Below are positions 6,960 to 50,401 of a stretch of 64,000 nt of DNA, one piece after another. Position 1 is the stretch's first letter. Every line of letters starts with the position of its first letter. Under the pieces are notes generated by a model. That model was not told the DNA's origin. It made no database searches and worked only from the letters and a program-made list of their open reading frames with translations. The position numbers and the translations under genes were made by a program. The stretch is from an uncultured bacterium (GTDB lineage: Bacteria > Arandabacterota > Arandabacteria > Arandabacterales > JALGWA01), in the NCBI GenBank assembly GCA_964604955.1, contig CAZSBE010000002.1, positions 194 through 64,193 of the forward strand. The letters run 5' to 3'.

Positions 6960-8166
6960 AGCGTTTCCCTTCTTCTTCTCCGCCGGCCTCGTCGGCGTCG
7001 ACCCTCTCCATGGTGATGCATCCGGGTGAGGGGCAGACCTGCATGCAGAGCGAACAGCCGAGGCATCTGGATTCGCTGACAACCGGGTAGCCGCCTGGTC
7101 CGATGCTGATGGCGTTGCCGCCCGCGTCCCTGCAGGAGATGTAGCAGAGGTCGTCCCTGAGGCACATCCCGGTTCTTATGCGGGGCACCGACCTGGTCGT
7201 CCCCAGGTCTTCGTATGTGACGATGTTCTTAAGCAGCCGTCCCTCCATCGCCCTGACGCCGGCGAAGCTGTTCCGCTTGAGGTAGTCCGTGAGGCCGCGG
7301 GCGAGGTCATCCACCATGGCAAACCCGTGGAACATGACTCCCGTGCAGACCTGTATCGCGCGTGCGCCGACGAGCAGGAACTCGCAGGCGTCCTGCCAGG
7401 CCATGATGCCGCCGACGCCGCTCACTTCAAGCGAAGTCGCCGCGCGCAGGTCCGCCACGACCCTCAGGGCCATTGGTTTCACCGGCGCCCCCGAAAGGCC
7501 CCCCGGCGAGGTGAGGCCGTCGATTGACGGATGTATTTCGAGGTTCTCGATGTCGATCCGGCCGAGACCCGGCACGGTGTTTATGGCGGAAACGCCCCGC
7601 GCGCCGGCGCTTTCGGCGACCTGCGCCACTGTGGCGACGTCGCCGGCGTTGGAGCCCAGTTTGACGATGATGGGAACGCGCGCGGCATCCCGGACGGCGG
7701 CAGTCACTTCCCGCGTCAGCTCCGGGTTCTGCCCGATCGAGAGGCCCATTTCATGGTTGCCGACTCCATGCGGGCACGACAGGTTGAGCTCGAGCGCGTC
7801 CGCGCCGGCCCGGCCGCACCTGTCGGCCATCAGTCTCCAGTCGGCGAGCTTGTAGGCGGGAGCGGCGATGCTCGCGATGAGCATCCTGTCCGGGAAGGTC
7901 TTCTTCACAGACTTGATGTCCTCGAGCCAGGCGTCGAGGTCGCGGTCGCTCAGGAGCTCGAGGTTGAGAAAGCCGCCACCCACGCTTGCGAACCTGGGGC
8001 TCAGGCGGACGCCCGAAGCGGGCTCAAGGGATATGGTCTTGGTCACGGCACCCGCCCAGCCGGCTTCGAAGCCGCGGGCGATATGACCCGCGTCCCGGGT
8101 GGCCGGGCCCGAAGCCAGGAGGAATGGGCTCCTCAGGGCGAATCCACAGAAATCGGTGCTGAGCAT
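6943..8166 (-). CDS. preA: PreA-like dihydropyrimidine dehydrogenase subunit (DHODH-like domain plus 2x[4Fe-4S] ferredoxin domain)
   Basis: Dihydroorotate-dehydrogenase-like TIM-barrel core. C-terminal CLGCSLCMQVCPSPGC ferredoxin motif. Confidence 0.8.
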   Translation of the reverse strand: MLSTDFCGFALRSPFLLASGPATRDAGHIARGFEAGWAGAVTKTISLEPASGVRLSPRFASVGGGFLNLELLSDRDLDAWLEDIKSVKKTFPDRMLIASIAAPAYKLADWRLMADRCGRAGADALELNLSCPHGVGNHEMGLSIGQNPELTREVTAAVRDAARVPIIVKLGSNAGDVATVAQVAESAGARGVSAINTVPGLGRIDIENLEIHPSIDGLTSPGGLSGAPVKPMALRVVADLRAATSLEVSGVGGIMAWQDACEFLLVGARAIQVCTGVMFHGFAMVDDLARGLTDYLKRNSFAGVRAMEGRLLKNIVTYEDLGTTRSVPRIRTGMCLRDDLCYISCRDAGGNAISIGPGGYPVVSESRCLGCSLCMQVCPSPGCITMERVDADEAGGEEEGKRYGSGA

Positions 8167-8187
8167 CTCCGAACTCCGCGTCTGCAG

Positions 8188-9051
8188 CTATTGCCGAGGT
8201 TTGACGAGTTCTTCGTAGGTGTCCGGTCTCCTACCCTCATAAAAATGCCAGAGACCCCTCACGCTTTCAATCAAAGAAAGATCCAGGTCGGCGACAATGA
8301 CATCGTCTCCGGAATCGCTTCCCTTTGCAAGGACTTTGCCCGCCGGGTCGCAGAAATAGCTCGAGCCGTAGTACTTGCCGCTCTCCCAGGGCTTCTCGAG
8401 ACCCACGCGGTTCAGCGCCCCCACGAAATAGCCGTTGGCGACGGCGTGGGCCCGCTGCTCTATATCCCAGAGATGGCGCGACAGCCCCTCGACGGTCGCC
8501 GACGGGTTGAAGACGATCTCGGCCCCTTTAAGACCGAGCGCCCTCGCCCCCTCGGGGAAGTGCCGGTCATAACATACGTAAATGCCCACGCGCCCGAACT
8601 CCGTGTCAAAGACGGGATAGCCCATGTCGCCGGGCTCGAAGTAGAACTTCTCGCGAAAGCCCTCCAGGTCCGGAAGGTGCATCTTCCTGTACTTGCCCAC
8701 GACTTCACCGTCGGTTCCTATGAGCACCGCCGTGTTGAAGTACTTGCCGCCTGCCTTCTCCGCGAGGGGAGCGACGAGCACAATGCCCAGCCGCCTGGCG
8801 ACGTTTCCCATCCTGGCCGTGGTCTCGCCGGGTACGGTCTCGGCGAGGTCAAGCCACCGCCGGTCCTCCCCGGCCGGAAAATAGGGCGCGTAGAAAAGCT
8901 CCTGAAGGCAGACGATGCTGGATCCGCGCGAAGCCGCCTCTTCTATCATGGGAATCTGCCTTGCGATCATGGCCTCTTTTACGGACTGGATCGGGCCCGA
9001 CGCATCGGGGCATCCCGTCTGGATCAAGGCGCATGTCACTGTCCTGGCCAT
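8188..9051 (-). CDS. N-carbamoyl-amino-acid / beta-ureidopropionase-type amidohydrolase (nitrilase superfamily)
   Basis: Nitrilase-superfamily catalytic cysteine context VCYDRHFPE and overall CN-hydrolase fold. It follows the hydantoinase and DPD genes. Confidence 0.8.
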   Translation of the reverse strand: MARTVTCALIQTGCPDASGPIQSVKEAMIARQIPMIEEAASRGSSIVCLQELFYAPYFPAGEDRRWLDLAETVPGETTARMGNVARRLGIVLVAPLAEKAGGKYFNTAVLIGTDGEVVGKYRKMHLPDLEGFREKFYFEPGDMGYPVFDTEFGRVGIYVCYDRHFPEGARALGLKGAEIVFNPSATVEGLSRHLWDIEQRAHAVANGYFVGALNRVGLEKPWESGKYYGSSYFCDPAGKVLAKGSDSGDDVIVADLDLSLIESVRGLWHFYEGRRPDTYEELVKPRQ

Positions 9052-9117: not shown

Positions 9118-9146
9118 CGCCTAAATTAAAGCCGCTACAGGGCGGC
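9118..9146 (-). terminator. Possible intrinsic terminator after the PMT-like gene
   Basis: On the minus strand there is GCCGC-CCUGUA-GCGGC, then UUUAAUUU. The stem is only 5 bp, so this is weak. Confidence 0.25.
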
Positions 9147-9204: not shown

Positions 9205-11619
9205 CTAGGGGCCTTCGAGTCTCCCCAGGGCGGCCTGGGCCTGGTCGCGCGCCGTCCCCGGCGGGGCGGTCTCGAGGTATTTTCTGTACGTCTCGCGGGC
9301 GCGGGCCCCGTCGCCCGTTCTCTCGTATGCCACCGCCAGGTTGCCCCGGGCCGTGAGGAGCAGCGGGCTGGCCTCGAGGGCGCGCTCGAAATAACGGATT
9401 GCCGAATCGGGCTCGTCCGTCCTCAAGAAAGCCAGCCCCATGTCGGAGAGCAGGTTCGCATCATCCGGAGCGACTTCGAGTCCGGCCCTCACGGCACCGA
9501 ACGCCTCGTCGCAGCGTCCCAGACCCATGAGAACCGTAGCCTCCGAATGATAGGGGTGAGGACTGTGAGGCTGGATGTCCCGTGCCGTCCTGATCTGCTC
9601 GATGCCGAGGTCGGGGTTGCCGGTATAGGCCAGGGCTATGCCCAGGCCGATATGGGCGTTGACGGTTGCGTTGTCCCGCGACAGGGCCTCGCGGTAATAG
9701 TGCATGGCCGTGGTGTAATCGCGCTTCCTTGAATAGGCATTGCCCAGGTTGGAGTACATCGGAGCTGGATTCGGGTTGCCCCTGAGGGCCTTTTCGTACT
9801 CGGTGATGGCCAGGTCGACATTGCCGCCCATATAATAGAGGCTGGCGAGCATGTCATGGGCTTCGAAGAAGTCGGGGTCGATGGCGACGGCCCGCTCCGC
9901 CATCAGGAACGACTCGCGCGGCGAGCCCAGCTCGAGAAGAAGTCTGGAGGCGTATATATGCGTGCCCGCATCGTCGCCAGCCGCGGCAACCGCCGCTCCG
10001 ACCGATGCCCTCGCGCCCGCTGTATCCCCGGCCGCTATACACCATCTCGCCAGGTGAAGGTGATACGTGCCGCTGAGAAGCCTCGAGTTGTAGTCCCTCC
10101 TGTCGCCGTCGCGTCCGCGCACCTCAAAGCGCTCGGGCGGCAAGCACTCTCTGCCCTCGCTCTCAAGGGCATACACCATGCCGCAGATATCGGCGTCGTA
10201 CCCGGCGACCACCGGCGGCACGGGCCCCACAAGCGCGAGGTCCGCCGGGCCCAAGGCCTCCACGAACCACTGCACGCATTCATCCACGTTCCGGGGGCCC
10301 GCGGGAAGACCCGCCGCCCGCGGGTTGGACGAGCCCAGCACGAAGACCCGGGCCGGGGCGTTTTCCACAAGCGAGACGTAGAGCAGCGGAAAATCGAGGG
10401 CGCTGCCGCTTCCTATCAGCAACGGCTCCGGGGCGCTCTCATCGCGCGCGCTCTCGACCGCGGCCATCGCATAGTCATGTGCGAACCAGGCGTCATGCCG
10501 CCTCTCGAGCGAGACGAGGTTGGTAACGAATATGAGCGAAACGCCGGCGAGGACGGCCGGCCCCGCCGCCCTGTTGAGCCTCGCCAGTCTCTCGATGAGG
10601 AAGCCGGCGCCGAGGGCGGCGAAGACCCCTACCGTGATGAGGGCCGGGAAGACGTGGCTGTCGATATCCGGGATATTGTATGCGGCCGAGTGGACCCCGT
10701 AGAAAACGAAGACCAAAAGCGCGCCGGCCAGCAGTCTCCATCTCTTGATCGAGACGGCCAGCCCGAGAAGCGCCAGGGCCGAAAGCCACAGGCCCCCCTG
10801 CGCGAACATGAGCCGCAGATAGGCGCCGAAATCGGCGAGCCTCGCGCCGGCTTCGAGGGGTTTCACTCTCCACTTGTAGCCCTGAGCGGTAATGTGGGAG
10901 ATGAAACCGTCAAGCGTCGACGTCTCGCCCCAGGTCAGGGGCGGAGCCTGCGCCGAGCGTATGGGTATGTAAAGCCACACCGTGAGCCCGAGCATCAGAA
11001 AGAGCAGCGCGACGACGACCGCGTTGAGCCTCGGCCTCACCCCCGATACGAGAAGGCCTATTACGGCCGCGGCCAGCGCGTACACCAGGCTGAGGTGATG
11101 GGATACTGCGAGCCCGCCCGCGAGTCCCATGAGCACAAGCACGCTGTCACCGCGCCTCGCGCCGGCCAGGGCAATCAGCAGCAGAGCCGTGACGAAAACG
11201 GCGTTAAGCGTATAGACCTCCGCCCCGGTGGCCTGCAGCCACCAGGCTTCGCGCGTGGCGAGGCCCAGGGCCACCACGACCCCCGCCCACCTTCCGGCCC
11301 CGAGGCCCCTGGCGACCAGATAGACGAAAGCGGTGAGAACCGAGGCGAGAACCGCGGACATGAGATTGTAGCGGTATGCCACCGACCCGAAGGCGAAGAT
11401 GCTGGAGAATATCCTGCCCAGCATGAGATAGAGCGGATAGCCGGGCGGATGCGCGACGCTCAGCGTGCGCGACGCTGCGATCAGCTCCCCGGCGTCCCCG
11501 GGCAGCACGCTGGGCGCCAGCGTGACGATGTAGATGAGAAGGGTCACGAAGAAGATGCAGACACATGCAATAATGTCCGGGCGGGCGCCCGCATCCGGTC
11601 GTCCGGTCAAAGAAATCAT
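9205..11619 (-). CDS. Polytopic membrane protein (DUF2723 / PMT-like GT-C fold) with C-terminal TPR repeats
   Basis: About 11 predicted TM helices in the N-terminal 470 aa. The C-terminus has multiple TPR units (for example AYSRKRDYTTAMHYYREAL). Confidence 0.6.
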   Translation of the reverse strand: MISLTGRPDAGARPDIIACVCIFFVTLLIYIVTLAPSVLPGDAGELIAASRTLSVAHPPGYPLYLMLGRIFSSIFAFGSVAYRYNLMSAVLASVLTAFVYLVARGLGAGRWAGVVVALGLATREAWWLQATGAEVYTLNAVFVTALLLIALAGARRGDSVLVLMGLAGGLAVSHHLSLVYALAAAVIGLLVSGVRPRLNAVVVALLFLMLGLTVWLYIPIRSAQAPPLTWGETSTLDGFISHITAQGYKWRVKPLEAGARLADFGAYLRLMFAQGGLWLSALALLGLAVSIKRWRLLAGALLVFVFYGVHSAAYNIPDIDSHVFPALITVGVFAALGAGFLIERLARLNRAAGPAVLAGVSLIFVTNLVSLERRHDAWFAHDYAMAAVESARDESAPEPLLIGSGSALDFPLLYVSLVENAPARVFVLGSSNPRAAGLPAGPRNVDECVQWFVEALGPADLALVGPVPPVVAGYDADICGMVYALESEGRECLPPERFEVRGRDGDRRDYNSRLLSGTYHLHLARWCIAAGDTAGARASVGAAVAAAGDDAGTHIYASRLLLELGSPRESFLMAERAVAIDPDFFEAHDMLASLYYMGGNVDLAITEYEKALRGNPNPAPMYSNLGNAYSRKRDYTTAMHYYREALSRDNATVNAHIGLGIALAYTGNPDLGIEQIRTARDIQPHSPHPYHSEATVLMGLGRCDEAFGAVRAGLEVAPDDANLLSDMGLAFLRTDEPDSAIRYFERALEASPLLLTARGNLAVAYERTGDGARARETYRKYLETAPPGTARDQAQAALGRLEGP

Positions 11620-13736
11620 CTGCCTCTCGACACAACTGCGAACTTCGTATGGGCGGACAGGTCCGCTGTCTCGTCACGCACGTTCATCTTGAGGACGCAC
11701 ACATAGAGCCCCGGAGCGAGGTGCCCGGCGTTTCCAGAGAGGCTTGCGAGCGGCAACTTGAACTCGGGTGCATCGATCAGCCCCTCACCCCTGAGAACCC
11801 GGAGGCCCGTCACGTCAAAGACCTCGATGAGGTAGCTTGCAAGGAAGTTCGTCTGGCTCGTGAATATGTCGGCTGTTATGACCGCGTCGTTCGGACTCTC
11901 AACCGGATTGGGGTAGAAATGCAGGTTCTCGAGCCTGGCGGTCACCGGGCTTACAGTCAGCGTCACGGTCGCCTGGTTGTTGCCCACATCGCTTTCTACA
12001 TCTTCGTCCACCGGAACAAGTGATATGGAGTAATCGATGTCGCCGTAGTCGCTCAGGCTGGTTTTCCAGGTGGCGGCCGCCTCGGCGATGCCACCGGCGA
12101 CCGCTTCAAGCCCAACCGGGCCCTCATGAACCACCGGGCCCGTGCCGTCCCTGCCCTGCCTCACGGTGAACGTGTAGACGGCCGGCCCCGAAAGGGGGCC
12201 TCCCACGTTCAGCGCCCTGACGGTCGCTGTAAGATCGCTTCCGGCCACCAGCGGGTAGCCGCTCGACCGGCCCTCCCAGCCGAACTCAATGCTCGCGGGA
12301 GTCACCACGAGGTCGCTCAGGGAGTCCCCCGGAATGTCGGCAAAGCGGAGCATGTACGCAGCGACCAGCCGCACGTTGTCGGCGACCTGGTCGAAGTCGA
12401 CGTTGCCGAGCGTGTCGCCCAGCGTGTGATAATGGGGAGTCAACGGTTCGGGGAGATAGCCCAATGTCTGGGCTCCGATCATGAGGGCGGGAATCCCCTG
12501 CCACCAGAACGGTGCATGATCGCTGTTGTGGATCTCCGGGCGAAAGCGGTCTATGAATTGCGTCTGCAGGCCCAGGTTGTCCGCCGTCTCCTGAAGGGCC
12601 TCCGTAATCCAGCCATCGCGATATCCATATACGATCTCGATCCACTTCTCGGCTTCGGTGTATCCGACCATGTCGATGTTGATCACCCCTATTATCGTGT
12701 CATTCGCCGCGAGGTTTTCAGCATAGTAATCGCTGCCAAGCAGCCCGATCTCCTCGGCGGACCACAGGGCGAAAGTGATGCCGAAATCGAACTTCTGACC
12801 GGCGAGCAGCCGCGCGCACTCGAGTACCGTGGTCGCGCCCGAAGCGTTGTCATCCGCTCCCGGGGCAGCGTCTGTCCGCCAGTCCCAGCCCGGCTGCCTG
12901 ACTCCTATGGCGTCGTAGTGGCCACAGATGATATAACGGGCGCTCGTTCTGGTGCCGGGCAGGTCGGCGACTATGTTCACGAAAACAGTATCCTGACCCT
13001 TGTAATACTCGGGCAGCTCCGGTTCGAACTCCTGCTCCCATACCGCCCCGCCTGCGGGAAGAACGTACTGCTCCAGTCGCTGCCTTATATAGGGAGTAAT
13101 GTTCTGTTTGAGGTCATAACGAGCACAGAACCGCGACCTGTACCTGCCGGAGGAGCCATCGAAGTTCATGAAGTATATGGTCTTCTCCACGCTATCGGGA
13201 CTCGCCCCCTCGGTAATCGACCTGATAAAATGAGCGCGCGGCCGCGTCATCGGTCTCTCTGCAAGCAGCTTTTCATGTAGTTCCTCACCTGCAGGCCGGC
13301 CGAGGAGGGCGTTGACCGGGGTGAATTTCACTCGCGAGATAGAGTAGCCGCTGTCCAGGACCATGTAGGCCCGGTCGACTTCACCCGAGAAAACCGTGAT
13401 GCGCTCTGTGCGGTAAACGAGGTCCACGCCTGCCGCTCCCAGAATCTCATCCGGCACCGGATAGGGCGAGTTCCACAGGGGCGCGTCACCTCTGGACCCC
13501 AGCACGTGGACTCCTCCGGCCGAAAGAGCAGCCGGATCGCCTCCCGGCACATCGACAAGCAGCTCGCCGGGCCCGGTGAAAAACCCCCTGAGCGGCTCCA
13601 TACGCGCTTCCAGGATAGCCTCATCCGCCGTCATCACCACCAGCTGCGAACCCGGTTCACCTACCGGGGCTCCCCATATCAGCAGCGTGGCCAGAACCGC
13701 AAGACCGCATGAGACGAATTGCGCCGGCTTTTTCAT
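11616..13736 (-). CDS. Secreted M28-family zinc aminopeptidase with C-terminal FlgD-Ig/T9SS-type sorting domain
   Basis: Signal peptide MKKPAQFVSCGLAVLATLLIW. M28 motifs HYDAIG, DDNASG and SAEEIGLLGS. The tail FYPNPVES...YVCVLKMNVRDE resembles a Por/FlgD C-terminal domain. Confidence 0.75.
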   Translation of the reverse strand: MKKPAQFVSCGLAVLATLLIWGAPVGEPGSQLVVMTADEAILEARMEPLRGFFTGPGELLVDVPGGDPAALSAGGVHVLGSRGDAPLWNSPYPVPDEILGAAGVDLVYRTERITVFSGEVDRAYMVLDSGYSISRVKFTPVNALLGRPAGEELHEKLLAERPMTRPRAHFIRSITEGASPDSVEKTIYFMNFDGSSGRYRSRFCARYDLKQNITPYIRQRLEQYVLPAGGAVWEQEFEPELPEYYKGQDTVFVNIVADLPGTRTSARYIICGHYDAIGVRQPGWDWRTDAAPGADDNASGATTVLECARLLAGQKFDFGITFALWSAEEIGLLGSDYYAENLAANDTIIGVINIDMVGYTEAEKWIEIVYGYRDGWITEALQETADNLGLQTQFIDRFRPEIHNSDHAPFWWQGIPALMIGAQTLGYLPEPLTPHYHTLGDTLGNVDFDQVADNVRLVAAYMLRFADIPGDSLSDLVVTPASIEFGWEGRSSGYPLVAGSDLTATVRALNVGGPLSGPAVYTFTVRQGRDGTGPVVHEGPVGLEAVAGGIAEAAATWKTSLSDYGDIDYSISLVPVDEDVESDVGNNQATVTLTVSPVTARLENLHFYPNPVESPNDAVITADIFTSQTNFLASYLIEVFDVTGLRVLRGEGLIDAPEFKLPLASLSGNAGHLAPGLYVCVLKMNVRDETADLSAHTKFAVVSRGR

Positions 13737-13747
13737 CAGTAGTCTCC

Positions 13748-15616
13748 TTAGAACCTCACTCCGTAGTCGAACCTGAGGTCTTCTCTTCTCTCGCCGGTAT
13801 CGTAGGAAGTCGAACCGAACTTGAGCGTGGCCGACCCGGCGCTCCCCAGTTTGAGAACCCCTATAAGATACCACCGCGAGCCGTCGCTTTTCAACATCTC
13901 TAATGACGGGTAGTACGGGAGCCCGGGTTCGTACTGGAAGAGGCGCGCGGAGTAGTCTTCCACTCTGAATGCGTGAAAGCCGCCCTTGAGCGTGAACCGC
14001 CGGGCCGCCTCCAGGCGCGTATCGAGCCGCACCAGGTCCGAGTAGTAGCTCTCTCGGCGCCCCCCGGCCTCCACCCTGGACCGCTGGCCTTCGATGCGGA
14101 GCCTGAGCCAGAGGATTCTGTGCGGCCTGTACTCGAGGTCGAGCCGGGTGCGGTATCTTGACCTCTCCGACGTCACATCGTCGATCCCCTCGGGCGGCTC
14201 CTCGGCCGCAGTTATCTTCTCGGACGCCTCCATCCGGAAGTCTCCGAAGCCGATGCCGAGTTCGAAGAGCGTCTCAGAACCGGTCGGGTTCAGGCCCCTG
14301 CCGGCCCCGAGGTCTTTGCGGTGAATGTCATTGCTGATCGCGATCAGCGTGCGCGGAGCCGGTTTCAGCGTGAGGCGAAGGAGGAGCCCCTCCTCGCCCG
14401 CCGTCTCGCGCGCGTAGGACGAGAATGGCCGGGAGTGAAGGCTGAGATAAGTCCGCGCATACTTGCGGCCGAGCGCCAGAAGGTCCAGGCCGGGCCGCTC
14501 GAAAGCGATGCCCCCCAGGAAGGCCGTTCCTCCGGCCCCTGAGAAAGCGGCCTCCCCGAATACGCCGAAATCGTCACCCATGTAGGTGAGGTCCACGGAT
14601 GCCAGGCGGTTGGTCCTGCCTTCGACCCAGGGGAAGGCGCCGGCGGCGAATCCCCCGCCGAACCTCGCAAGCGAGAGGCTCATGCCCCCGCGCACCCGCC
14701 CGCGGCTTGAGCGCAGCGCGAATCCTGCAAGGTCTTCGCGGAGCGTATCCCTGCCTTCGGTCTCGGTCGGCGTTACGTGGATTCCCGAGGTCCGTATGTA
14801 CTCGACCTCGCCGTCTTCGTTTAAGGTGGCGTCCAGATGGGTGCTGGATAGCGCGACGCAGAATTCGATGCCGCGGGCCGCGAGCGAGAGCGCCGCCCCG
14901 CCGAGGGCGAAGTTCTCGACCGTCGAGGTGTAAGGCTTGAGCCCGAAAGCCCGGCGGCTCAGTCGCCACGGGCCTATGGTGGACGGCGAGTAGCCGTAAG
15001 GGCCCGAGAAAACGAGCCCGTAGCCCGAGTTCAGGAAGTAGCTGCCCGCCACGATATGCACCCTCGACCACCTCTTCTGCACATAGACGGACTGGAAATC
15101 GTTCAGGCGAGTCTCAAGCCGGTCTTTCTCGACCGTAAGGCCCAGTCCCAGGCCGGAGTAGTCACCTCGAACCGTAAAGTAGGTCTTGTTGGCTTCGATC
15201 GCTGACCGCGGGGGGCTGGATATGAACCTCAGCCTTGCGGTCCCCGTCGGGCGCAACGCTTTCTCAACCGGCTTCACCACGACGAACGGGGCAAGCAGTT
15301 CAACCGTCTCGGCCGTCACGCCTTCGATTCGCGTGAGGTCGTCAAGCGAGCCGAGTTCGCCCGCCTCCCTCAGGTCGACTATCCGGGCGGCAAGCCACGG
15401 GCTGACCCACGGAAGCGCGGCCATGGTTTCGGGGTCGGCGTCGGTCAGATTGATGGGGTCTTTAAGGGCGGCGTCCAGAATGCTGAGAAGGTCCAGGTAC
15501 TCCTCCTCGGACTCCACGTTCTTGAATATCTCATCGCCGGTTTGGCCGAAACACGGGCCGGAGGCTGCGAGGAGAATAAAGCACACTGCGAGCGGAAGGG
15601 GAATGAACGATCTCAC
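13748..15616 (-). CDS. Outer-membrane beta-barrel protein with N-terminal ComEA-like helix-hairpin-helix domain
   Basis: Signal peptide. The HhH motif is INLTDADPETMAALPWVSPWLAARIVDLREAGELGSLDDLTRIEGV. There is a long beta-rich region ending in the C-terminal aromatic ...DYGVRF. Confidence 0.65.
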   Translation of the reverse strand: MRSFIPLPLAVCFILLAASGPCFGQTGDEIFKNVESEEEYLDLLSILDAALKDPINLTDADPETMAALPWVSPWLAARIVDLREAGELGSLDDLTRIEGVTAETVELLAPFVVVKPVEKALRPTGTARLRFISSPPRSAIEANKTYFTVRGDYSGLGLGLTVEKDRLETRLNDFQSVYVQKRWSRVHIVAGSYFLNSGYGLVFSGPYGYSPSTIGPWRLSRRAFGLKPYTSTVENFALGGAALSLAARGIEFCVALSSTHLDATLNEDGEVEYIRTSGIHVTPTETEGRDTLREDLAGFALRSSRGRVRGGMSLSLARFGGGFAAGAFPWVEGRTNRLASVDLTYMGDDFGVFGEAAFSGAGGTAFLGGIAFERPGLDLLALGRKYARTYLSLHSRPFSSYARETAGEEGLLLRLTLKPAPRTLIAISNDIHRKDLGAGRGLNPTGSETLFELGIGFGDFRMEASEKITAAEEPPEGIDDVTSERSRYRTRLDLEYRPHRILWLRLRIEGQRSRVEAGGRRESYYSDLVRLDTRLEAARRFTLKGGFHAFRVEDYSARLFQYEPGLPYYPSLEMLKSDGSRWYLIGVLKLGSAGSATLKFGSTSYDTGERREDLRFDYGVRF

Positions 15617-16440
15617 TCGCCGGTTCCGGTAATGTAGAAGACATCGACCTGAGGCCGGCAGAGGAACCTGAATGGAAATATGTTGGTGCCGATGCCTTTG
15701 TTGACATTGAGGCGAAAATCGCCGAGATCGAAGAGGCCCGAGATATACTCGCTCCTGGAAGCGTAGGGGATCAGGCTCACAATGGCGGGCACTCCTATCT
15801 GACCGCCGTGGGTATGGCCGGACAGCACCAGGTCCACGCCGGCCTCCCTGAGGTCGTCGAGGATGTAATCGGGATGGAAGTGCGTAAGCACGATCACGGG
15901 TTTGGTTCCGTCCACCTCCGAGAGCGCGGTCCTGGGTCTGGCGCGGTGGGTCACGGGGTCGTCGAGTCCGACCAGCAGGAACTCGCCGCAGTCAACGCTC
16001 TCGTTGAAGAGGAATCGGATATTCGGCGAATCTTCCCAGAGCGCGCCTCTGCGCCTGGCGTCCTGAATGACGGCATCGGCATTGCCGCACACGGCGAATA
16101 TGCCCTTGCGAGCCCGCAGCATGGAGGTAAACGCGAGGCCTTCTGCGAGCGAGCTGCGCCCTTTAAGAAGGTCACCTGTGATGAAGACATAGTCAGGCCC
16201 GATCTCCCGCACTATCTTCACGAGTCTCCTCTCCCTCAAGCCGACCCGGGTCGTGTGAGTATCCGCTATATGGACAATGCACACGGGCTCGTCCGGGAAC
16301 CCCCGTATGGTGAGGTTGTGGGTCTCCACCCTTATCCAGTAGGGCTCGATGATGCCCGCGTAGATTAGAAAGCCGACGAGTAGGGACAGCCACCAGATGT
16401 TCTTCTTTGATATGCGCATTTCTTGGAGTGAAGCTAACAC
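15613..16440 (-). CDS. Membrane-anchored calcineurin-like metallophosphoesterase
   Basis: N-terminal TM helix. Motifs DTH, GDLL, GNAD and LSGHTHGGQ. Confidence 0.8.
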   Translation of the reverse strand: MLASLQEMRISKKNIWWLSLLVGFLIYAGIIEPYWIRVETHNLTIRGFPDEPVCIVHIADTHTTRVGLRERRLVKIVREIGPDYVFITGDLLKGRSSLAEGLAFTSMLRARKGIFAVCGNADAVIQDARRRGALWEDSPNIRFLFNESVDCGEFLLVGLDDPVTHRARPRTALSEVDGTKPVIVLTHFHPDYILDDLREAGVDLVLSGHTHGGQIGVPAIVSLIPYASRSEYISGLFDLGDFRLNVNKGIGTNIFPFRFLCRPQVDVFYITGTGE

Positions 16441-16667: not shown

Positions 16668-17519
16668 CTACTGCCATGAGTAGGCGATACCGGCTTCATG
16701 TGTCATCCCCAGATCGAAGTTGACGGTCGATGAAACGTCCAGGCCCAGCCCTCCGGCGCGAAGACCGAGGCCGAACGAGAACTCCATCGGGAAAGTCGAT
16801 GAGCCCAGCCTCACGAGTATTCCACGCATCGCACGCCACTCGAGGCCCGTGGCATAAGCCGTACGGAGGCCGTTCTCTTTCTCCAGCCGGAAGCCGCAGG
16901 CCGCCGACCCCGAGACCGCGTACCCGACGCCCGCGCCCACCCGCCGTGGAACGCCGCCACCCGCGACGCCCAGGCCGGAGGCGAAGGCGTTGCCGATATC
17001 GAAACTGACCCTGAGCCGGGGAGTGACGCGCGCGTATATGAGGAGGTCGAAAGCCATGCAGCGGCCTTCGTAGAGACCGGGAGATATGGCCTCGCCCAGC
17101 CTCAGCCCGGGCTGGAGCCAGAGGTCGCCGCGGCGGAGGGCAACTGAGAAAGCCGCGGTCTGCTCGAAGTAGCCGGGAGCCGCGAGGCCGCTATAGGAGA
17201 AACATGCCCCGGCCCGGCCGCCGCTCAGGGTGACTTTGCCGCGGAGAGCGACGACGTCGATGCCGGCGACGCCGAAAGGCCGGTAGCCGTACGCGTCCAC
17301 AACGCCTTCGGACCGGCGCGCGCCCGAAGCGTGAAAGACCGAGCTGGTCGAACCGTCCACGAGGCCCAGGGCTTCGGGACCCGAACAGCTTCGCTCCGCC
17401 GGGGAAAACGGCCTGAGTTCGAAGGCCGCCTCGGAGGGGGCGGCCAGGAAAAGGCATGAAACAAACAGGCCGGAGAGCGCCAGAGCCCCGCCGAGACGCG
17501 GACGGGCATGTTTCTCCAT
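16668..17519 (-). CDS. Secreted outer-membrane beta-barrel-like protein (hypothetical)
   Basis: Signal peptide LALSGLFVSCLFLAAPSEA. Gly/aromatic-rich alternating pattern. Aromatic C-terminal ...AYSWQ. Confidence 0.5.
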   Translation of the reverse strand: MEKHARPRLGGALALSGLFVSCLFLAAPSEAAFELRPFSPAERSCSGPEALGLVDGSTSSVFHASGARRSEGVVDAYGYRPFGVAGIDVVALRGKVTLSGGRAGACFSYSGLAAPGYFEQTAAFSVALRRGDLWLQPGLRLGEAISPGLYEGRCMAFDLLIYARVTPRLRVSFDIGNAFASGLGVAGGGVPRRVGAGVGYAVSGSAACGFRLEKENGLRTAYATGLEWRAMRGILVRLGSSTFPMEFSFGLGLRAGGLGLDVSSTVNFDLGMTHEAGIAYSWQ

Positions 17520-17524
17520 GACCC

Positions 17525-19219
17525 TCACCTCCGCACCAGCACGACAGGCATCTTCGAGTGAATCGTCCGCCCGCCGCCGGTGGGCGAGGCCTCCAGAAGG
17601 ACTATATAGACTCCGATCGGCGCCGGGCGCCCGTCCTTCACGCTGCCGTCCCAGAAGGTGATCCTTCTCTCCTCAACCAGGTCCCCGTCCAGAAGCGTCT
17701 TGAACGGCCGGCCGTTGATGTCGAACACCTTGAGCCTCACGACCGCCGGTGCCGGCATTTCAACCGAGACCGAGAGCAGGTCATCGGCGCCATCGCCGTC
17801 CGGCGAAAAAGTCCCCGGCCGGATCTTGAGATAGCCCCCGGGCTCGGAGAAAGTCACCGACACGCTGTTCGGCCGGCCCGGGCTTGCCGGCGACGACCCG
17901 TAGTGCGGCGACCAGTTGGAGGCACGCTCCGATTTAGCCTGGGAGTCGATCCTCTCGACGGAGCGCCCGGGCTTGCCCCAGGCCGCGCTGTATGCAACCG
18001 AATCCACGCGTGTCCCGAAGGCGTCCCGCAGGACGACCATGTCGGCGTAGCCGCGCGGGCCTTCTGTATCGTTGAGGGTCGGCCAGCCCCCGGCCGGCTT
18101 AAGTGCGGCGCAGCCCGCGCCCGGGTAGGCGGCCAGGAAGTCGTCCTCGTCCTCGACGAGCAGGAGATAACCTCCCGGCGCGAGCAGGGGGCCCGCTTCA
18201 GCCAGCTGCCTCCGCTTACCGCCCGAGTCCTCGAGCGTCCAGCCCTCGAGGCTTACGAACGATGCGCTTCTATTCAGGACCTCCACCCACTCGCATCCGC
18301 CTGAGGCCGGCTTGAAGATGAACTCGTTGACCACCACCGGCGCGGGCCAGATGAGGATGCTAGTCGCGAGCGTGTCGTTGTGATGCCACCTGTCGAGAGG
18401 GTGCGTCTGCCAGAGGCGGGCGCCGTGAAGTCCCTCTCCGACATTGGGGATGTCGACGGCGATCCTGCGGTATGCGCCCGGCTCGATGTCCGCATCGAGC
18501 CGCGACGAGTCCCGGCAGCCGCAACACGCCAGATGCACCCAGGCGCCGGCGCCGCACGAGCTCCCGCCGACATTCGCGATGTTCGAGATCACCTGAAGCG
18601 CGGCGTGGCCGGGTTGCGCATAGCGGGACAGGCAGGCCCTGGTTACGGCGAGGTCGAATGGCGGGTGATTGAAGTCGCCCGGGGAAGGCGCGGGGAACGG
18701 GGAGAAGTCAGCCGAGTTGTCGCCCGTGTCGATGCCGTCGGGGCTGCGGCCCAGGCTCGAGCCCGCCGCCGGCCCCGTTGCCGGAGAGCCTTCGTAGTAC
18801 TCTGCGAAGTCATGGGCGCCCCAGCCCACTACGTCCGCGGCGGACCCGGGCGAGTCGAGCCGGCAGGCGTCGGGTCCATTTTGAAGGTCAAGCGAGGTTA
18901 TGAAATCGGGCGCGGGCCGGACGGCCTCCTCCCCTATGACGAAGAAACCGCCTGCTCTTATGGTGTCAGCGCGCGTGCCCTGCCACTCGCTCTTCCACCT
19001 CCCGGCATGCGCGCCGTTCCCGGTCGCCACTTCATGATAGTGCAGACATATGTCGGCACCGGTTCCGTTGTAGAGCTCTATGAACTCCCGACCGGCGTCC
19101 GCCCCGTCGGGATCGTACAGTACTTCATTGATGACGACACCGGTGGAACCCGCGGAGCATACGCGGGGGAGCGTCAGAAGCAGCAGCGTTGCGATTGTCT
19201 TTTCCCATCCCATCATCAT
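17525..19219 (-). CDS. Secreted lamin-tail-domain (LTD) protein with two LTD repeats and C-terminal FlgD-Ig-like domain
   Basis: Start MMMGWEKTIATLLLLTL signal. LTD signatures are VVINEVLYDP...EFIELYN and VVVNEFIFKP...EWVEVLN. The C-terminal FSPDGDGADD motif fits a FlgD-Ig-like domain. The ORF-track N-terminal extension is translated repeat element. Confidence 0.7.
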   Translation of the reverse strand: MMMGWEKTIATLLLLTLPRVCSAGSTGVVINEVLYDPDGADAGREFIELYNGTGADICLHYHEVATGNGAHAGRWKSEWQGTRADTIRAGGFFVIGEEAVRPAPDFITSLDLQNGPDACRLDSPGSAADVVGWGAHDFAEYYEGSPATGPAAGSSLGRSPDGIDTGDNSADFSPFPAPSPGDFNHPPFDLAVTRACLSRYAQPGHAALQVISNIANVGGSSCGAGAWVHLACCGCRDSSRLDADIEPGAYRRIAVDIPNVGEGLHGARLWQTHPLDRWHHNDTLATSILIWPAPVVVNEFIFKPASGGCEWVEVLNRSASFVSLEGWTLEDSGGKRRQLAEAGPLLAPGGYLLLVEDEDDFLAAYPGAGCAALKPAGGWPTLNDTEGPRGYADMVVLRDAFGTRVDSVAYSAAWGKPGRSVERIDSQAKSERASNWSPHYGSSPASPGRPNSVSVTFSEPGGYLKIRPGTFSPDGDGADDLLSVSVEMPAPAVVRLKVFDINGRPFKTLLDGDLVEERRITFWDGSVKDGRPAPIGVYIVLLEASPTGGGRTIHSKMPVVLVRR

Positions 19220-19270
19220 CACCGCATCAATCGTCGCCCGCCGCCCCGCCCGAGTCAAGCTCCCCATGAG

Positions 19271-19318
19271 GGGGTCAGGTCTTAAAATGCACAAGGGGTC
19301 AGGTCTTGAAATGCACAA
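19271..19318 (+). repeat. REP-like element, two tandem 24-bp units (GGGGTCAGGTCTT[A/G]AAATGCACAA), upstream flank of the transposase gene
   Basis: Direct reading. The units are exact except for one A/G difference. Confidence 0.9.
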
Positions 19319-19372
19319 CACCCGGTGGCCCCACCATTCCCTCCGAATCTGGCACGGAGGTTGCAATTGTAA

Positions 19373-20236
19373 ATGCCCGCTATGGTAAGACCGATACGCA
19401 TTGAAGCCCCGGGAGGTGTCTACCACATCACTTCACGGGGAAACGCCAAACAGACGATCTTCCGGGACGCAGTGGATTACCGGTGTTTCTTCTCCATCCT
19501 GGGGGATGTCGCCGGCGACTGCGGGTGGCAGTGTTACGCCTATTGCCTCATGCCGAATCACTACCACCTGGTGCTGATGACACCCAGCGGAGCGCTCTCG
19601 AGGGGGATGCGGCAGATCAACGGGGTATACGCGCAGAGGTTCCATTGCCGCCATGCTTCCGTCGGCCACGTCTTCCAGGGAAGGTTCAAGTCCATTCTCG
19701 TCGACAGGGAGGCGTACCTGCTTGAAGTGTGCCGCTACGTCGTGCTCAACCCGGTGAGAGCGGGTCTTGTTCGAGAATGCGGCGACTGGCGCTGGTCCAG
19801 CTATCTTGCCACGTTGGGACGCGACCCGAAGCCCTCGTTCCTGGCCAGCGAATGGCTGCTCGGACAGTTCGCCAGGTCTCCGGCGAGGGCGCGGACCGCA
19901 TTCGTCAGATTCGTGGAGGACGGCCTCAAGGCCACCAGCCCGTTGGAGAACATCCGGGGAGGTGTCTTTCTGGGAAACGAGGCCTTTGTGTCCGGTTTCT
20001 CGGCGCAACTTGCCCGCAAGAGGGCCGAGCGCGACTTTCCCCGTGTGCAGCGCCACGCGGACCGGCCGCCGCTCTCGGAGATACTGCGCGCGACGGGGGG
20101 AAGCCCCCGGACAGGCCGGCAGATCGCGGAGGCGCGGGAGCGCTGGGGCTACACCATCACGGAGATTGCGCGGTATCTTCATCTGCACCGGAACACGGTC
20201 GCGGCTCTCGCAAGAAGAGCGGGCGAGCAGGACTGA
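19373..20236 (+). CDS. Y1 HUH tyrosine transposase, IS200/IS605-like and REP-associated (RAYT-type), with C-terminal HTH region
   Basis: 287 aa. HuH motif HYHLVL. Downstream catalytic Tyr region RWSSYLAT. It is the only plus-strand gene in the window. It is flanked by inverted copies of the short repeat. Confidence 0.75.
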   Translation: MPAMVRPIRIEAPGGVYHITSRGNAKQTIFRDAVDYRCFFSILGDVAGDCGWQCYAYCLMPNHYHLVLMTPSGALSRGMRQINGVYAQRFHCRHASVGHVFQGRFKSILVDREAYLLEVCRYVVLNPVRAGLVRECGDWRWSSYLATLGRDPKPSFLASEWLLGQFARSPARARTAFVRFVEDGLKATSPLENIRGGVFLGNEAFVSGFSAQLARKRAERDFPRVQRHADRPPLSEILRATGGSPRTGRQIAEARERWGYTITEIARYLHLHRNTVAALARRAGEQD

Positions 20237-20254: not shown

Positions 20255-20290
20255 TGTGCATTTTAAGACCTGACCCCGGGGTCTGACCCC
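20255..20290 (-). repeat. Inverted REP-like unit (TTGTGCATTTTAAGACCTGACCCC) plus palindromic tail GGGGTC-T-GACCCC, downstream flank of the transposase
   Basis: It is the exact reverse complement of the first unit at 19271. It also supplies the last codons and stop of gpmA. Confidence 0.9.
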
Positions 20291-21033
20291 GTGGGCCCGG
20301 CCTGGTCCGCGACAGACCGTTTGGCGCGCTCGACATCTTCCGGGTCACCGAGATAGCGGGACCTCAACGGCTTGAGTCCGTCGTCGAGTTCGTAGACGAG
20401 CGGTATGCCTGTCGGTATGTTCAGCCGTACGATCTCATCATCGGAGAGGCCGTCGAGGTACTTGACGAGCGCCCGCAGGCTGTTCCCATGGGCGGAGATG
20501 ATGGCGCGGCGGCCCGACTCGATCGCCGGGGCTATCGCCTCGTGCCAGTAGGGAAGAAAACGCGCGACGGTATCCGCCAGGCTCTCGGTCAGCGGTATGT
20601 CACTTTCATTCATGTCTCTGTAGCGCGGATCGTGCCCGGGATACCGCGGGTCCGATTTATCCAGGGGCGGCGGCTTCACGTCATAGCTGCGTCTCCACTC
20701 CATTACCTTTTCTGCGCCGAACTTCGCGGCCGTCTCGGCCTTGTTGAGGCCCTGGAGCGCGCCGTAATGCCGCTCGTTGAGTCTCCAGGACTTCTCCACC
20801 GGTATGTGCAGCAGCCCCATCTCCTCGAGCACGATGTCGAGGGTGTGTATGGCCCGTTTCAGAACTGAAGTGAAGGCGATGTCGAAAACGTAGCCTTCCT
20901 GTGAAAGGAGAGCCGCGGCTTTGTGGGCTTCCTCCACGCCCCTCGCCGAAAGGCCGACGTCGGTCCAGCCCGTGAACCTGTTCTCCTTATTCCAGGTGCT
21001 TTCACCATGTCTCAAGAGCACGAGTCTGTGCAT
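20263..21033 (-). CDS. gpmA: 2,3-bisphosphoglycerate-dependent phosphoglycerate mutase
   Basis: [10 protein letters not shown] phosphohistidine motif, length, and overall dPGM similarity. The C-terminal ...DPGVRS-stop is encoded inside the repeat element. Confidence 0.9.
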
Positions 21034-21034
21034 A

Positions 21035-22084
21035 TTACGCTATCGTCACCTCGTTCGAGAGATATACATCCTGTATGGCATTGAGGATCGCAATGCCGTC
21101 CGCCATCGGTTTTTGAAACGCCTTCCTCCCGGAGATAAGACCCATCCCTCCCGCGCGCTTGTTGATGACTGCTGTCCTCACCGCCTGGGCCATGTCGTTC
21201 TCGCCGGACGCGCCGCCGGAGTTTATGAGTCCCACCCTGCCCATGTAACAGTTCGCCACCTGGTAGCGCGTGAGGTCGATTGGATGGTCGCTCGTCAGCT
21301 CCGTATAGACCTTCTCATGGGTCTTGCCGAAGCCGACCGCCGTGAAGCCGCCGTTGTTCTCGGGCTGCTTCTGCTTGACGATGTCGGCCTCTATGGTCGC
21401 GGCGAGATGGTTGGCCTGGCCTGTAAGGTCGGCGGCCAGGTGATAGTCCTTGTCCTTTTTGAACGCTGGGTTCCGGAGATATGCCCAGAGTATGGTCATC
21501 ATGCCGAGCTCATGGGCGTATTCAAAAGATTCCGATATCTCGACGATCTGCCGGTTACTCTCCGCCGACCCATAGTATATAGTAGCCCCGACAGCGACCG
21601 CTCCCATATCGAAAGCCTGGTCCACGCTCGCAAACAGGATCTGGTCGTGTTTGTTGGGATAGGTCAGGAGCTCATTGTGGTTGATCTTGAGTATGAACGG
21701 GATTCTGTGGGCATACTTGCGCGCCACCGAGCCGAGAACCCCGAGGGTCGAGGCCACGCCGTTACAGCCGCCTTCAATTGCTAACCTTACAATGTTCTCG
21801 GGATCGAAGTACATTGGATTCGGGGCGAAGGACGCGCCCGCCGTATGTTCGATGCCCTGGTCGACCGGCAGGATGGAGACGTATCCGGTGCCGGCGAGCC
21901 TTCCGGTGCCGGCGAGCGCATGCATGCTGCGCATCACCTGAATCGGTCGGTCCGACTCCCTGACGACGCGGTCGATGAAGTCGCCGCCAGGAAGATGGAG
22001 GTTCTCCCTGGGGATTGTCTCACATTTGTGGCCCAGCAGGTAGTCGGCCTCCGGGCCCAGAAGCTTGCGTATCTCAGTTGCCAT
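21035..22084 (-). CDS. fbaB: Class I fructose-bisphosphate aldolase (FbaB/DhnA type)
   Basis: It matches E. coli FbaB closely along its length ([38 protein letters not shown]). Confidence 0.9.
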
Positions 22085-22104
22085 CTCAAAACCTCCTCAG
22101 GCGG

Positions 22105-47395: not shown

Positions 47396-47403
47396 TTTAC
47401 GAC

Positions 47404-47775: not shown

Positions 47776-47793
47776 CCTGTCACCTCCCGGTGT

Positions 47794-50361: not shown

Positions 50362-50401
50362 ATTCGCGGTCGTCCCCCCCGTTATCGGCCTGACTCAGGC
50401 G

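Follow-up and report, generated by a model that had tools for sequence, protein, structure and literature searches.

The window, a 64,000-nucleotide stretch of DNA from an uncultured bacterium, carries on its minus strand an open reading frame which starts with GTG and encodes a protein of 622 residues; its span of 13748..15616, stop codon included, is exactly the one given in the original prediction, and entry P0001 of the protein collection is 100% identical to the product. This gene, which encodes a helix-hairpin-helix (HhH) domain joined to a predicted beta-barrel, and the gene of a second, predicted small barrel form a pair that lies in an apparent six-gene operon in this clade. The features of the locus are the following.

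9131..9146, minus strand: terminator-like hairpin with T-run, immediately past the end of the gene block (consensus scan, pattern match only)
9205..11619, minus strand: final gene of the apparent operon, for a TPR-containing glycosyltransferase of the GT-C type, TMEM260-like (Pfam TMEM260-like, E=2.4e-24, and many TPR families)
11616..13736, minus strand: M28 peptidase gene (Pfam Peptidase_M28, E=1.1e-36)
13748..15616, minus strand: gene for the 622-residue predicted HhH and beta-barrel outer-membrane protein (ORF listing)
13751..15247, minus strand: predicted 24-stranded beta-barrel, residues 124-622, with the beta-signal ...YGVRF at its end (AlphaFold2 strands)
13883..13960, minus strand: loop L11 (residues 553-578), conserved, with the family motif R-x-Y-x-Y-E...YYP (conservation, deeper model)
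14744..15124, minus strand: outer-side loops L2-L4 with the strands S4-S7 between them, residues 165-291, putative plug or constriction (conservation, DSSP loop assignment)
15281..15457, minus strand: degenerate (HhH)2 domain of the ComEA/EEPD1/Tex type, residues 54-112, hairpin 1 LPWVSP, hairpin 2 IEGVT (Pfam HHH_3, PDB matches)
15461..15535, minus strand: conserved acidic N-terminal helix, residues 28-52 (both AlphaFold2 models)
15545..15616, minus strand: signal peptide, residues 1-24, MRSFIPLPLAVCFILLAASGPCFG followed by QT (read directly from the sequence)
15613..16440, minus strand: membrane-anchored calcineurin-like metallophosphoesterase, YaeI/LpxG-like (Pfam Metallophos, E=1.9e-11)
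16668..17528, minus strand: partner gene, a 286-residue signal-peptide protein and predicted small beta-barrel related to PorV/PorQ (FadL-type; homology to Bacteroidota partners)
17525..19426, minus strand: gene for a protein with two lamin-tail domains (LTD; Pfam LTD, E=1.1e-26)

Several of these genes overlap. The stop codon of the LTD gene overlaps the start of the partner gene by 4 bp, that of the phosphoesterase gene overlaps the start of the barrel gene by 4 bp, and a further 4-bp overlap joins the TMEM260-like gene to the M28 gene, whose probable start (position 13736, MKKPAQF...) lies 11 nt after the barrel gene stop, its open frame extending to 13874. The true start of the LTD protein is probably downstream of the first start codon of its ORF. 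In related loci the LTD gene is conserved upstream and the M28 gene downstream, and the TMEM260-like gene is conserved in L001, L005-L007, L009 and L013; the phosphoesterase also matches the NCBIfam models YaeI (1.7e-26) and LpxG (1.1e-24), both below cut-off, and its conservation at this place is confined to the Eisenbacteria-like clade. The C-terminal domain of the LTD protein resembles the T9SS type B signal: its last 115 residues match CHU_C with E=3.4e-4 and 21.1 bits against a gathering score of 27 (E=0.0097 with the whole protein) and FlgD_ig with 0.018, again below the gathering score, and the C-terminal 115 residues of the M28 peptidase give a weak match, of the T9SS type A kind, to Por_Secre_tail (E=0.02, below the gathering score). 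BLAST of these two C-terminal domains against the Por_Secre_tail domain of the nuclease in locus L002 gave no match. The block is flanked by pyrimidine-catabolism-like genes, DeoC and a histidine phosphatase. Taken together, the LTD, phosphoesterase, M28 and GT-C neighbours point to the display or processing of cell-surface proteins.

HhH domain and loss of the ComEA DNA-contact residues

The signal peptide of the barrel protein is without a lipobox and is the poorest-conserved region in the family alignment (mean identity 0.15). It is followed by an N-terminal module which in both AlphaFold2 models begins with helices at residues 28-31 and 37-52; in the acidic helix a Glu (K32 in the target), an Asp (E39 in the target) and L47 are conserved in 85-90% of the family. 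The original prediction had placed a ComEA-type HhH domain at about residues 50-115, and this assignment is upheld by profile searches: residues 54-112 match Pfam HHH_3 significantly (E=1.5e-7, 31.8 bits with a gathering score of 27) and the solved ComEA-related protein 2duy with E=1e-4. A profile built from 138 family sequences matches the ComEA structures 8dss (1.5e-7) and 8dfk (1e-6) as well as EEPD1 (4e-11), and a Pfam scan of 43 diverse family members detected HHH_3 in 41 of them. The full-length ComEA model TIGR01259 gives the barrel protein only 19.5 bits, against a cut-off of 152.35. Like ComEA, the barrel protein would be exported by Sec and carry its HhH domain, homologous to the (HhH)2 DNA-binding domain of ComEA, on the periplasmic side; it differs in that ComEA is soluble or anchored in the inner membrane, whereas here the HhH domain is joined to an outer-membrane barrel of about 500 residues. 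Weak matches to GspK of the T2SS and to PsbU provide examples of HhH-like domains without DNA binding.

The residues by which ComEA holds DNA have been substituted family-wide. In ComEA-type HhH domains the backbone amides of two G-h-G hairpins touch the DNA phosphates. Hairpin 1 of the target reads W70-V71-S72, with glycine in 0-1% of 291 family members, and hairpin 2 reads G99-V100-T101, where the first glycine is retained in 82% of the family and the second in 1%. Mutagenesis has shown that the lysine which follows hairpin 1 of ComEA (K164 in B. subtilis, K166 in G. stearothermophilus, K63 in V. cholerae) is essential for DNA binding and transformation (PMC9747964). At the position equivalent to K164/K63, 80% of the 291 members have Gln, 12% have Leu and 1% have Lys or Arg, and the other ComEA lysine positions, those of the second HhH, hold Lys or Arg in 9-29% of the family; at the four positions the target has L75, E103, L107 and A109. 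The net charge of the target domain is -8. We have largely withdrawn charge as an argument against DNA binding, because solved ComEA domains themselves carry about -2 to +1 as counted from alignments, which makes charge alone a weak argument and leaves only the -8 of the target as unusual. Since the hairpin-1 glycines are absent and the ComEA lysine is replaced by Gln or Leu, DNA binding by the HhH domain appears doubtful from sequence, and names such as 'DNA uptake protein ComE-like' should be read with caution, as they rest on fold homology to a protein whose DNA-binding residues are gone here.

Architecture and conservation of the barrel

Two AlphaFold2 models of the protein (pLDDT 76.6 and 82.4) agree on 24 long strands between residues 124 and 621. 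By DSSP, the turns on the side of the N- and C-terminus are 2-5 residues long in both models, and the loops on the opposite side have 2-41 residues, the longest being L3 (41), L4 (30), L11 (26) and L7 (21). Averaged over the family, the 24 strands have a dyad amphipathicity of 1.99, compared with 1.10 +/- 0.16 and a maximum of 1.70 in 2000 shuffles. The C-terminus, ...FDYGVRF, is of the aromatic beta-signal type; the terminal position is 80% identical across the 291 members, and F622 is nearly invariant (at least 90%) in the 138-sequence alignment. The signal peptide, strand pattern and beta-signal of the modelled protein are those of BAM-dependent outer-membrane barrels, and the protein is predicted to be a large outer-membrane beta-barrel of 24 strands. 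The modelled topology also places the HhH domain, in all likelihood, on the periplasmic side of the membrane, because it is N-terminal, the number of strands is even and the short turns are on the side of the termini. The beta-rich region of roughly 500 residues and the aromatic C-terminal residue described in the original prediction were thus both recovered, and its picture of a ComEA-type HhH domain on an outer-membrane barrel stands as regards the fusion, the homology and, from the modelled topology, the periplasmic side; the DNA-binding role which it gave to the domain is not supported.

Conservation within the family peaks in loops L2, L3, L4 and L11 and at charged strand residues, and the conserved barrel residues are more often acidic than basic. 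Per-element conservation is 0.78 for L2, 0.58 for L3 and 0.56 for L4, against 0.14-0.29 for L1, L5 and L9, and residues D165, E168, D173, G198, G200, E234, S257, D262, G278 and H280 of the segment 165-291 are invariant. In the deeper model L11 (conservation 0.67) folds as an additional beta-hairpin (strands 559-566 and 569-575), and its R558, the Tyr at 560 (Phe in the target) and E563 are conserved at 97-100%. From conservation and loop lengths only, we infer that L2-L4 and L11 may turn inward and plug or narrow the lumen.

Two known classes of large barrel were considered and set aside. Similarity to TonB-dependent transporters is of the generic barrel kind, with no Plug or TonB_dep_Rec profile and no fitting neighbours, and a chaperone-usher usher was rejected as Pfam gave no match to Usher, PapC_N or PapC_C and the neighbourhood has no chaperone or pilin genes. 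The ushers PapC and FimD do have 24 strands and an internal plug, but that plug is an inserted Ig-like domain whereas the putative plug of the HhH barrel is made of loops, and sequence identity to them is 10-11% with TM-scores of at most 0.38.

The predicted small-barrel partner and the family

The barrel gene is genetically tied, in two phyla, to a gene for a PorV/PorQ-like barrel of 273-286 residues. In seven of seven Bacteroidota loci the gene immediately upstream of the barrel gene encodes a partner of 273-283 residues, and the partner is present in every Eisenbacteria-like locus which extends upstream to its position. An hhalign comparison of the window partner with those of the Bacteroidota gives a probability of 98.5% and E=2.7e-15, and hmmsearch finds the window protein at 2.2e-11, with 1e-11 to 1e-25 across both directions. 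Three Bacteroidota partners scanned (L003, L016 of Vicingus serpentipes, and L018) match the PorV/PorQ model NF033709 at E=1e-15 to 1e-18 (55-67 bits, with a curated cut-off of 90 bits). No Pfam or NCBIfam model matches the 286-residue protein of the window, so that its probable relationship to the PorV/PorQ family passes through the profile-profile step only. The Metallophos gene was rejected as the conserved partner, as the gene upstream in Bacteroidota matches the 286-residue gene and gives E=0.12 to Metallophos. Among the surroundings of the pair, OmpA-domain proteins adjoin it in L003 and L021, and PagL and PAP2 lie near it in L017.

The HhH-barrel fusion is not rare or a one-off. A profile search for homologues returned 3,692 cluster representatives at E<=1e-30 with end-to-end matches, so that the same fusion occurs full-length in thousands of clusters; a word-index search with a mixed alignment returned only the 23 proteins already known. 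The members come from Bacteroidota and from Eisenbacteria-like MAGs and bear generic names only. This very large, conserved family is uncharacterised: we found neither a curated family that covers the barrel nor a relative of solved structure, nor any publication on an HhH domain with a 24-strand barrel and a PorV/PorQ-like partner, a literature search for T9SS and HhH found no T9SS paper mentioning an HhH barrel, and one for Eisenbacteria and T9SS gave nothing relevant. PG0534/PorF was rejected as a relative, being a 92-kDa TonB-receptor-like protein.

Possible functions of the two-barrel pair

Our tentative proposal, which we consider a fair way short of certain and somewhat below an even chance, is that the large barrel and its FadL-type partner form a two-barrel complex of the outer membrane, gene adjacency being the only basis for the partnership. 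The barrel protein would be exported by Sec and then inserted into the outer membrane by BAM. Its periplasmic N-terminal module, composed of the acidic helix and an (HhH)2 domain without the DNA-contact residues of ComEA, would act as a docking or gating element and not as a DNA clamp; the 24-strand barrel would be a gated conduit or a platform, with its conserved outer-side loops folded into the lumen as a plug; and the small PorV/PorQ-like barrel would serve it as cap, shuttle or surface anchor. The operon products, namely an LTD surface protein whose C-terminal signal is type B-like, a phosphoesterase, a secreted peptidase and a glycosyltransferase, would serve the display or processing of surface proteins. 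The data show the domain make-up, the fold class of the barrel, the size of the family, the linkage to the partner gene and the loss of the ComEA determinants, whereas we infer not only the plug but also complex formation, transport direction and substrate.

The role given to the small barrel is modelled on type IX secretion (T9SS), where PorV serves SprA and PorP/SprF serves type B cargo. SprA has 36 strands and about 2,400 residues, in contrast to the 24 strands and 622 residues of the HhH barrel; the partner, at 273-286 residues, is shorter than PorV/PorQ and falls below the family cut-off, and T9SS component models do not match the HhH barrel. The likeness to the pairs SprA/Sov-PorV, PorP/SprF with type B cargo, and PorQ-PorZ is that here, too, a large barrel is co-encoded with a FadL-type barrel of the PorV/PorQ family, that the phyletic ranges overlap (Bacteroidota and relatives), and that the related locus L002 has a T9SS signal domain. 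T9SS cargo is bound by PorV and PorP-like proteins, FadL-type barrels of 14 strands, and type B cargo genes adjoin their cognate porP-like genes (PMC9143113). The gene order of this clade mirrors that arrangement, the LTD gene, whose product has a CHU_C-like C-terminus, standing immediately before the small barrel gene. In Bacteroidota no cargo gene adjoins the pair, so that the resemblance to T9SS in role is to be read as an analogy and not as a finding.

The barrel could instead be an outer-membrane conduit for DNA or its breakdown products, with the periplasmic HhH domain binding incoming nucleic acid as a ComEA-like ratchet, for transformation or for the use of extracellular DNA (eDNA) as nutrient. 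The HhH domain is truly homologous to the nucleic-acid-binding domains of ComEA, EEPD1 and Tex, the operon of this clade encodes a phosphodiesterase and an LTD protein, Xds and ExeM are examples of extracellular nucleases with LTD domains, and two genes from a relative with 41% identity lies a nuclease of the architecture LTD-Endonuclease_1-Por_Secre_tail. To these can be added the nucleotide-related genes beside the block and, in Bacteroidota, purE directly upstream of the pair in three of seven loci with other purine or nucleotide genes near it in most, but such a neighbourhood may be inherited synteny. We nevertheless regard this conduit as quite unlikely, given the family-wide absence of the ComEA determinants and, as a weak argument alone, the charge of the target domain; the conserved barrel residues are moreover acidic more often than basic, unlike the polyanion exporter AlgE. 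In Riemerella anatipestifer, from the same phylum as most HhH-barrel family members, a transposon screen for transformation named other components, the HhH protein RA0C_RS02645 and the outer-membrane barrel RA0C_RS04915, both of which are needed for DNA uptake (PMC8459023). These are two separate proteins, the barrel having a carboxypeptidase-regulatory-like domain; RA0C_RS02645 was rejected as a family member since it has three HhH motifs, is periplasmic and lacks a barrel.

A plugged and closed anchor without transport, in which the HhH domain tethers the outer membrane, or the FadL-type partner with its cargo, to a periplasmic structure, is also rather unlikely. Its comparators are OmpM (SLH and porin), PorP-PorE and the accessories BamG/BamH of the Bacteroidota BAM complex, and FadL-type barrels do anchor partner proteins in Bacteroidota, both in BamG-BamH (PMC12611786) and in PorP-cargo-PorE (PMC9143113). 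The wide spread in Bacteroidota and the housekeeping neighbourhoods would suit envelope maintenance, as would the adjoining OmpA-domain proteins suit an anchor, and the GspK and PsbU matches show that HhH-like domains need not bind DNA. However, a 24-strand barrel with elaborate invariant charged residues exceeds the needs of an anchor, the analysis turned up no periplasmic binding partner, and in tethers of the OmpM/OmpA type the periplasmic module is SLH or OmpA_C instead of HhH, the barrel here being much larger and having no evident link to peptidoglycan. Least probable, and very unlikely in our estimate, is an outer-membrane enzyme like PagL, OMPLA or OmpT which would act on lipid, LPS or surface proteins with a putative catalytic site made of polar residues of the inward loops (S257, D262, H280, E234 and others). 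The Ser, Asp, His and Glu residues in S7, L3 and L4 are 97-100% conserved, and there are lipid A-related neighbours, the LpxG/YaeI-like phosphoesterase here and PagL with PAP2 in L017, but the known outer-membrane enzymes are small barrels of 8-12 strands, and no sequence or fold match to such enzymes rises above generic barrel similarity.

An outer-membrane barrel with a periplasmic accessory domain is a familiar design; the combination for which we found no precedent is that of a ComEA-type HhH domain, 24 strands with conserved and putatively inward loops, and a constant PorV/PorQ-like partner. It is conceivable, if unlikely, that the HhH barrel and its FadL/PorV-like partner are a previously unrecognised outer-membrane translocon of Bacteroidota and related phyla, moving a polymer independently of the known machines; the polymer could then be a nucleic acid, taken up as DNA or scavenged as eDNA by means of a diverged ratchet of the ComEA kind, or else surface proteins or lipoproteins. 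To our knowledge several transport steps across the Bacteroidota-type envelope, such as the passage of DNA through the outer membrane, still lack an assigned outer-membrane component, and the barrel pair is therefore a reasonable candidate for test. The family counts thousands of clusters from Bacteroidota and Eisenbacteria-like bacteria, a group with major gut, oral, marine and soil organisms, and to assign it a function would close a true gap in what is known of their cell envelope.

The HhH-barrel protein and its family

The target of this analysis, the gene at 13748..15616 (-), consists of one ORF, 622 codons long, with a GTG start; its product is 100% identical to P0001 of the public protein collection. 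The ComEA-type HhH domain of the original prediction passed the profile significance check; residues 54-112 score 31.8 bits with Pfam HHH_3 (E=1.5e-7; gathering score 27) and also align with the ComEA-related structure 2duy (E=1e-4), and a PDB search with a family profile of 138 sequences returned HhH proteins only (EEPD1, 4e-11; ComEA 8dss, 1.5e-7; ComEA 8dfk, 1e-6; Tex, 1e-3). Outside this domain the target matched no Pfam or NCBIfam family, and in a scan of 43 family members the barrel part drew nothing beyond stray weak matches to the outer-membrane families DUF481 and OMP_b-brl_3.

Word-index searching recovered only 23 relatives; exhaustive profile search raised this to 13,791 cluster representatives with E<=1e-3, of which 3,692 reach E<=1e-30; nearly all of the top 150 align end to end, with lengths of 614-740 aa. 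One Bacteroidota member used as query produced 1,756 matches from Flavobacteriales, Bacteroidales, Vicingus serpentipes and other Bacteroidota, and the nearest relatives of the target (39-70% identity) come from unclassified MAGs and MAGs of Candidatus Eisenbacteria. The fusion of HhH domain and barrel that had been predicted is thus widespread and, given this breadth and the presence of HHH_3 in 41 of 43 diverse members, it is ancient and conserved and no local accident. The target is an ordinary member of this large family, on which a literature search found no paper.

The predicted beta-barrel was supported, at the level of the fold class, by AlphaFold2 models from alignments of 19 sequences (pLDDT 76.6, pTM 0.67) and 138 sequences (pLDDT 82.4, pTM 0.78), both of which place 24 long antiparallel strands in residues 124-621. 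In these models the strands are joined through 2-5 residues on the side where both termini lie, and the longest connections on the opposite side are the loops L3 (41 residues), L4 (30), L11 (26) and L7 (21). As modelled, this layout is the classical outer-membrane-protein pattern, which would give the N-terminal HhH module a periplasmic position. No solved structure is a close relative (Foldseek TM-scores <=0.40), though the fold class is clear. Independently of AlphaFold, the hydrophobicity of alternate residues in the 24 strands was averaged over the family; the two strand faces differ by 1.99 units, whereas 2000 shuffles gave 1.10 +/- 0.16 (maximum 1.70). The C-terminus reads ...FDYGVRF, its terminal Phe being approximately 80-90% conserved.

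The best-conserved elements of the barrel are not the lipid-facing strands but the outer-side loops, with mean identities of 0.78 for L2 and 0.67 for L11 and with L3 and L4 also ranking high, together with charged strand residues. Conservation reaches 93-100% over 291 sequences at K164, D165, E168, D173, E234, S257, D262, H280, E285, E355, R384, E408, D430, R489, R507, E509, D532, R558, E563 and R581. In outer-membrane proteins it is normally the exposed surface loops that vary most, whereas these are highly conserved; we therefore infer that they turn inward and plug or constrict the lumen, held there by salt bridges.

DNA-contact positions of the HhH domain

ComEA contacts DNA through the backbone amides of its G-h-G hairpins and a few lysines, the most conserved being K164 in B. 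subtilis (K63 in V. cholerae), loss of which lowers transformation more than 100-fold (PMC9747964). These positions were transferred to 291 family members by HMM alignment with the ComEA structures.

ComEA contact positions in the target and the family
Hairpin 1 (G-I-G): target W70-V71-S72; family [LFW]-L-[NST], Gly 0-1%
K164 equivalent: target L75; family Q 80%, L 12%, K+R 1%
Hairpin 2 (G-I-G): target G99-V100-T101; family first Gly 82%, second Gly 1%
Three other lysines: target E103, L107, A109; family K/R 9-29%

Judged from this alignment, the homology of the domain to ComEA holds at the level of the fold, but the known DNA-binding determinants are not kept, which speaks against the DNA-binding role originally predicted for it. 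Weak matches to GspK and PsbU, neither of them known to bind DNA, point the same way. The net charge of the domain (-8 in the target, family mean -3.6) was not relied on, because solved ComEA domains themselves carry about -2 to +1.

The gene block and the PorV/PorQ-like partner

The target lies within a tight co-directional gene block, which is kept, whole or to the edge of the contig, in the Eisenbacteria-like loci of relatives L001, L005-L008, L010, L011, L013 and L014.

Genes of the block
19426..17525 (-), LTD (lamin-tail domain) protein; 4-bp overlap with the partner gene
17528..16668 (-), 286-aa partner; 228-bp gap before the metallophosphoesterase gene
16440..15613 (-), metallophosphoesterase; 4-bp overlap with the target
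15616..13748 (-), target barrel; 11 nt to the probable M28 start at 13736
to 11616 (-), M28 peptidase; 4-bp overlap with the glycosyltransferase gene
11619..9205 (-), TMEM260-like/TPR glycosyltransferase; then a terminator-like hairpin at 9146..9131

The C-terminal domain of the LTD protein, whose gene directly precedes that of the partner, has a sub-threshold match to the T9SS type B signal CHU_C (E=3.4e-4), and the M28 peptidase weakly matches the type A signal Por_Secre_tail (E=0.02). In L002, where the barrel relative is 41% identical to the target, the M28 peptidase gene is followed at 4775-7513 by a gene for a 912-aa LTD + Endonuclease_1 + Por_Secre_tail protein, a predicted T9SS-secreted nuclease.

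The partner gene is the only neighbour that persists across phyla. In 7/7 Bacteroidota loci examined (L003, L016-L021) the barrel gene is directly preceded by a gene of 273-283 aa, whose product is homologous to the 286-aa protein of the window (hhalign probability 98.5%, E=2.7e-15; hmmsearch E=1e-11 to 1e-26). All three Bacteroidota partners scanned match the PorV/PorQ family NF033709 of NCBIfam (E=1e-15 to 1e-18, below the curated cut-off of 90 bits); PorV, PorQ and PorP/SprF are FadL-type 14-strand barrels (PMC9143113).

Around the Bacteroidota pair, purE is the next gene upstream, in the same orientation, in three of the seven loci (L017, L018, L019), and other purine or nucleotide genes occur within a few kb in most of them (purH in L019; purA and prs in L020; prs in L016; phosphoribosyltransferase and adenylate kinase in L017), surroundings which may be a clue to function or else a matter of inherited synteny. 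Genes for OmpA-domain proteins adjoin the pair in L003 (1-1626, DUF5723 + thrombospondin repeats + OmpA) and L021 (7997-9925, DUF6624 + OmpA), recalling the porP-porE adjacency of T9SS (PMC9143113).

Directly after the block in the window is a set resembling reductive pyrimidine catabolism (5571-9051, -), parts of which adjoin the barrel block in related MAGs (L001, L004-L007, L013).

Genes following the block
8188-9051 (-), CN_hydrolase
6943-8166 (-), PreA-like DHO_dh + 4Fe-4S protein
5571-7082 (-), dihydropyrimidinase-like amidohydrolase
4352-5713, PALP enzyme, after the set

The LTD gene has an IS200-like Y1 transposase gene close upstream on the other strand (19373-20236, +; Pfam Y1_Tnp E=9.6e-11); a Y1_Tnp gene occupies the corresponding place in L001 (barrel 70% identical to the target; region 42% identity by tblastn), which suggests that the copy is fixed, and perhaps domesticated (RAYT-like), and did not insert recently. 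Opposite this transposase gene, an ORF of 251 aa at 19433-20188 is probably spurious. Further upstream (20263-22839, -) are a histidine phosphatase, a DeoC/LacD-family aldolase and a nitroreductase, the first and last of which are kept in L001.

Elsewhere, a release-factor ORF (PCRF + RF-1 domains; 38949-40628, -) is 559 aa long with PCRF starting only at residue 213, and is either over-extended upstream or a gene with an unusual N-terminal extension. A 636-aa ORF at 36860-38770 (+), opposite to most genes, had no Pfam match at E<=1e-4 and could be a real gene or a high-G+C artefact. GAF, HisKA/HATPase and HD_5 (HD-GYP-type) signalling proteins cluster at 46280-52777 and 59982-61280 (-), at least four such genes falling within 15 kb.

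Possible functions of the pair

The best-supported reading, which we put forward tentatively, is a two-barrel outer-membrane complex of the target and its PorV/PorQ-like partner, in which the 24-strand plugged barrel would be a gated conduit or platform, the smaller barrel its cap, shuttle or anchor, and the degenerate HhH module a docking or gating element in the periplasm. In the clade of the target such a complex would be tied to surface-protein display or processing. A structural tether or biogenesis factor is an unlikely alternative to this complex, and a nucleic-acid channel with a ComEA-like ratchet is somewhat less likely again; the LTD, nuclease and phosphodiesterase context and the nucleotide-metabolism neighbours would suit such a channel, but the DNA-contact residues are lost. 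That the target is an outer-membrane enzyme seems very improbable, and the remaining probability is kept for explanations outside the two-barrel complex and these three rivals. The target is not a ComEA; it was tested for three defining features of that protein and shows none of them. It was also rejected as an usher and as a TonB-dependent transporter.

The target and its partner resemble the outer-membrane pairs of T9SS in logic and phyletic range but are not among its described components. A barrel with a periplasmic accessory domain is known as a design; the domain combination and the partner are undescribed. Should the pair prove to be a new translocon, the finding would be of greater interest.
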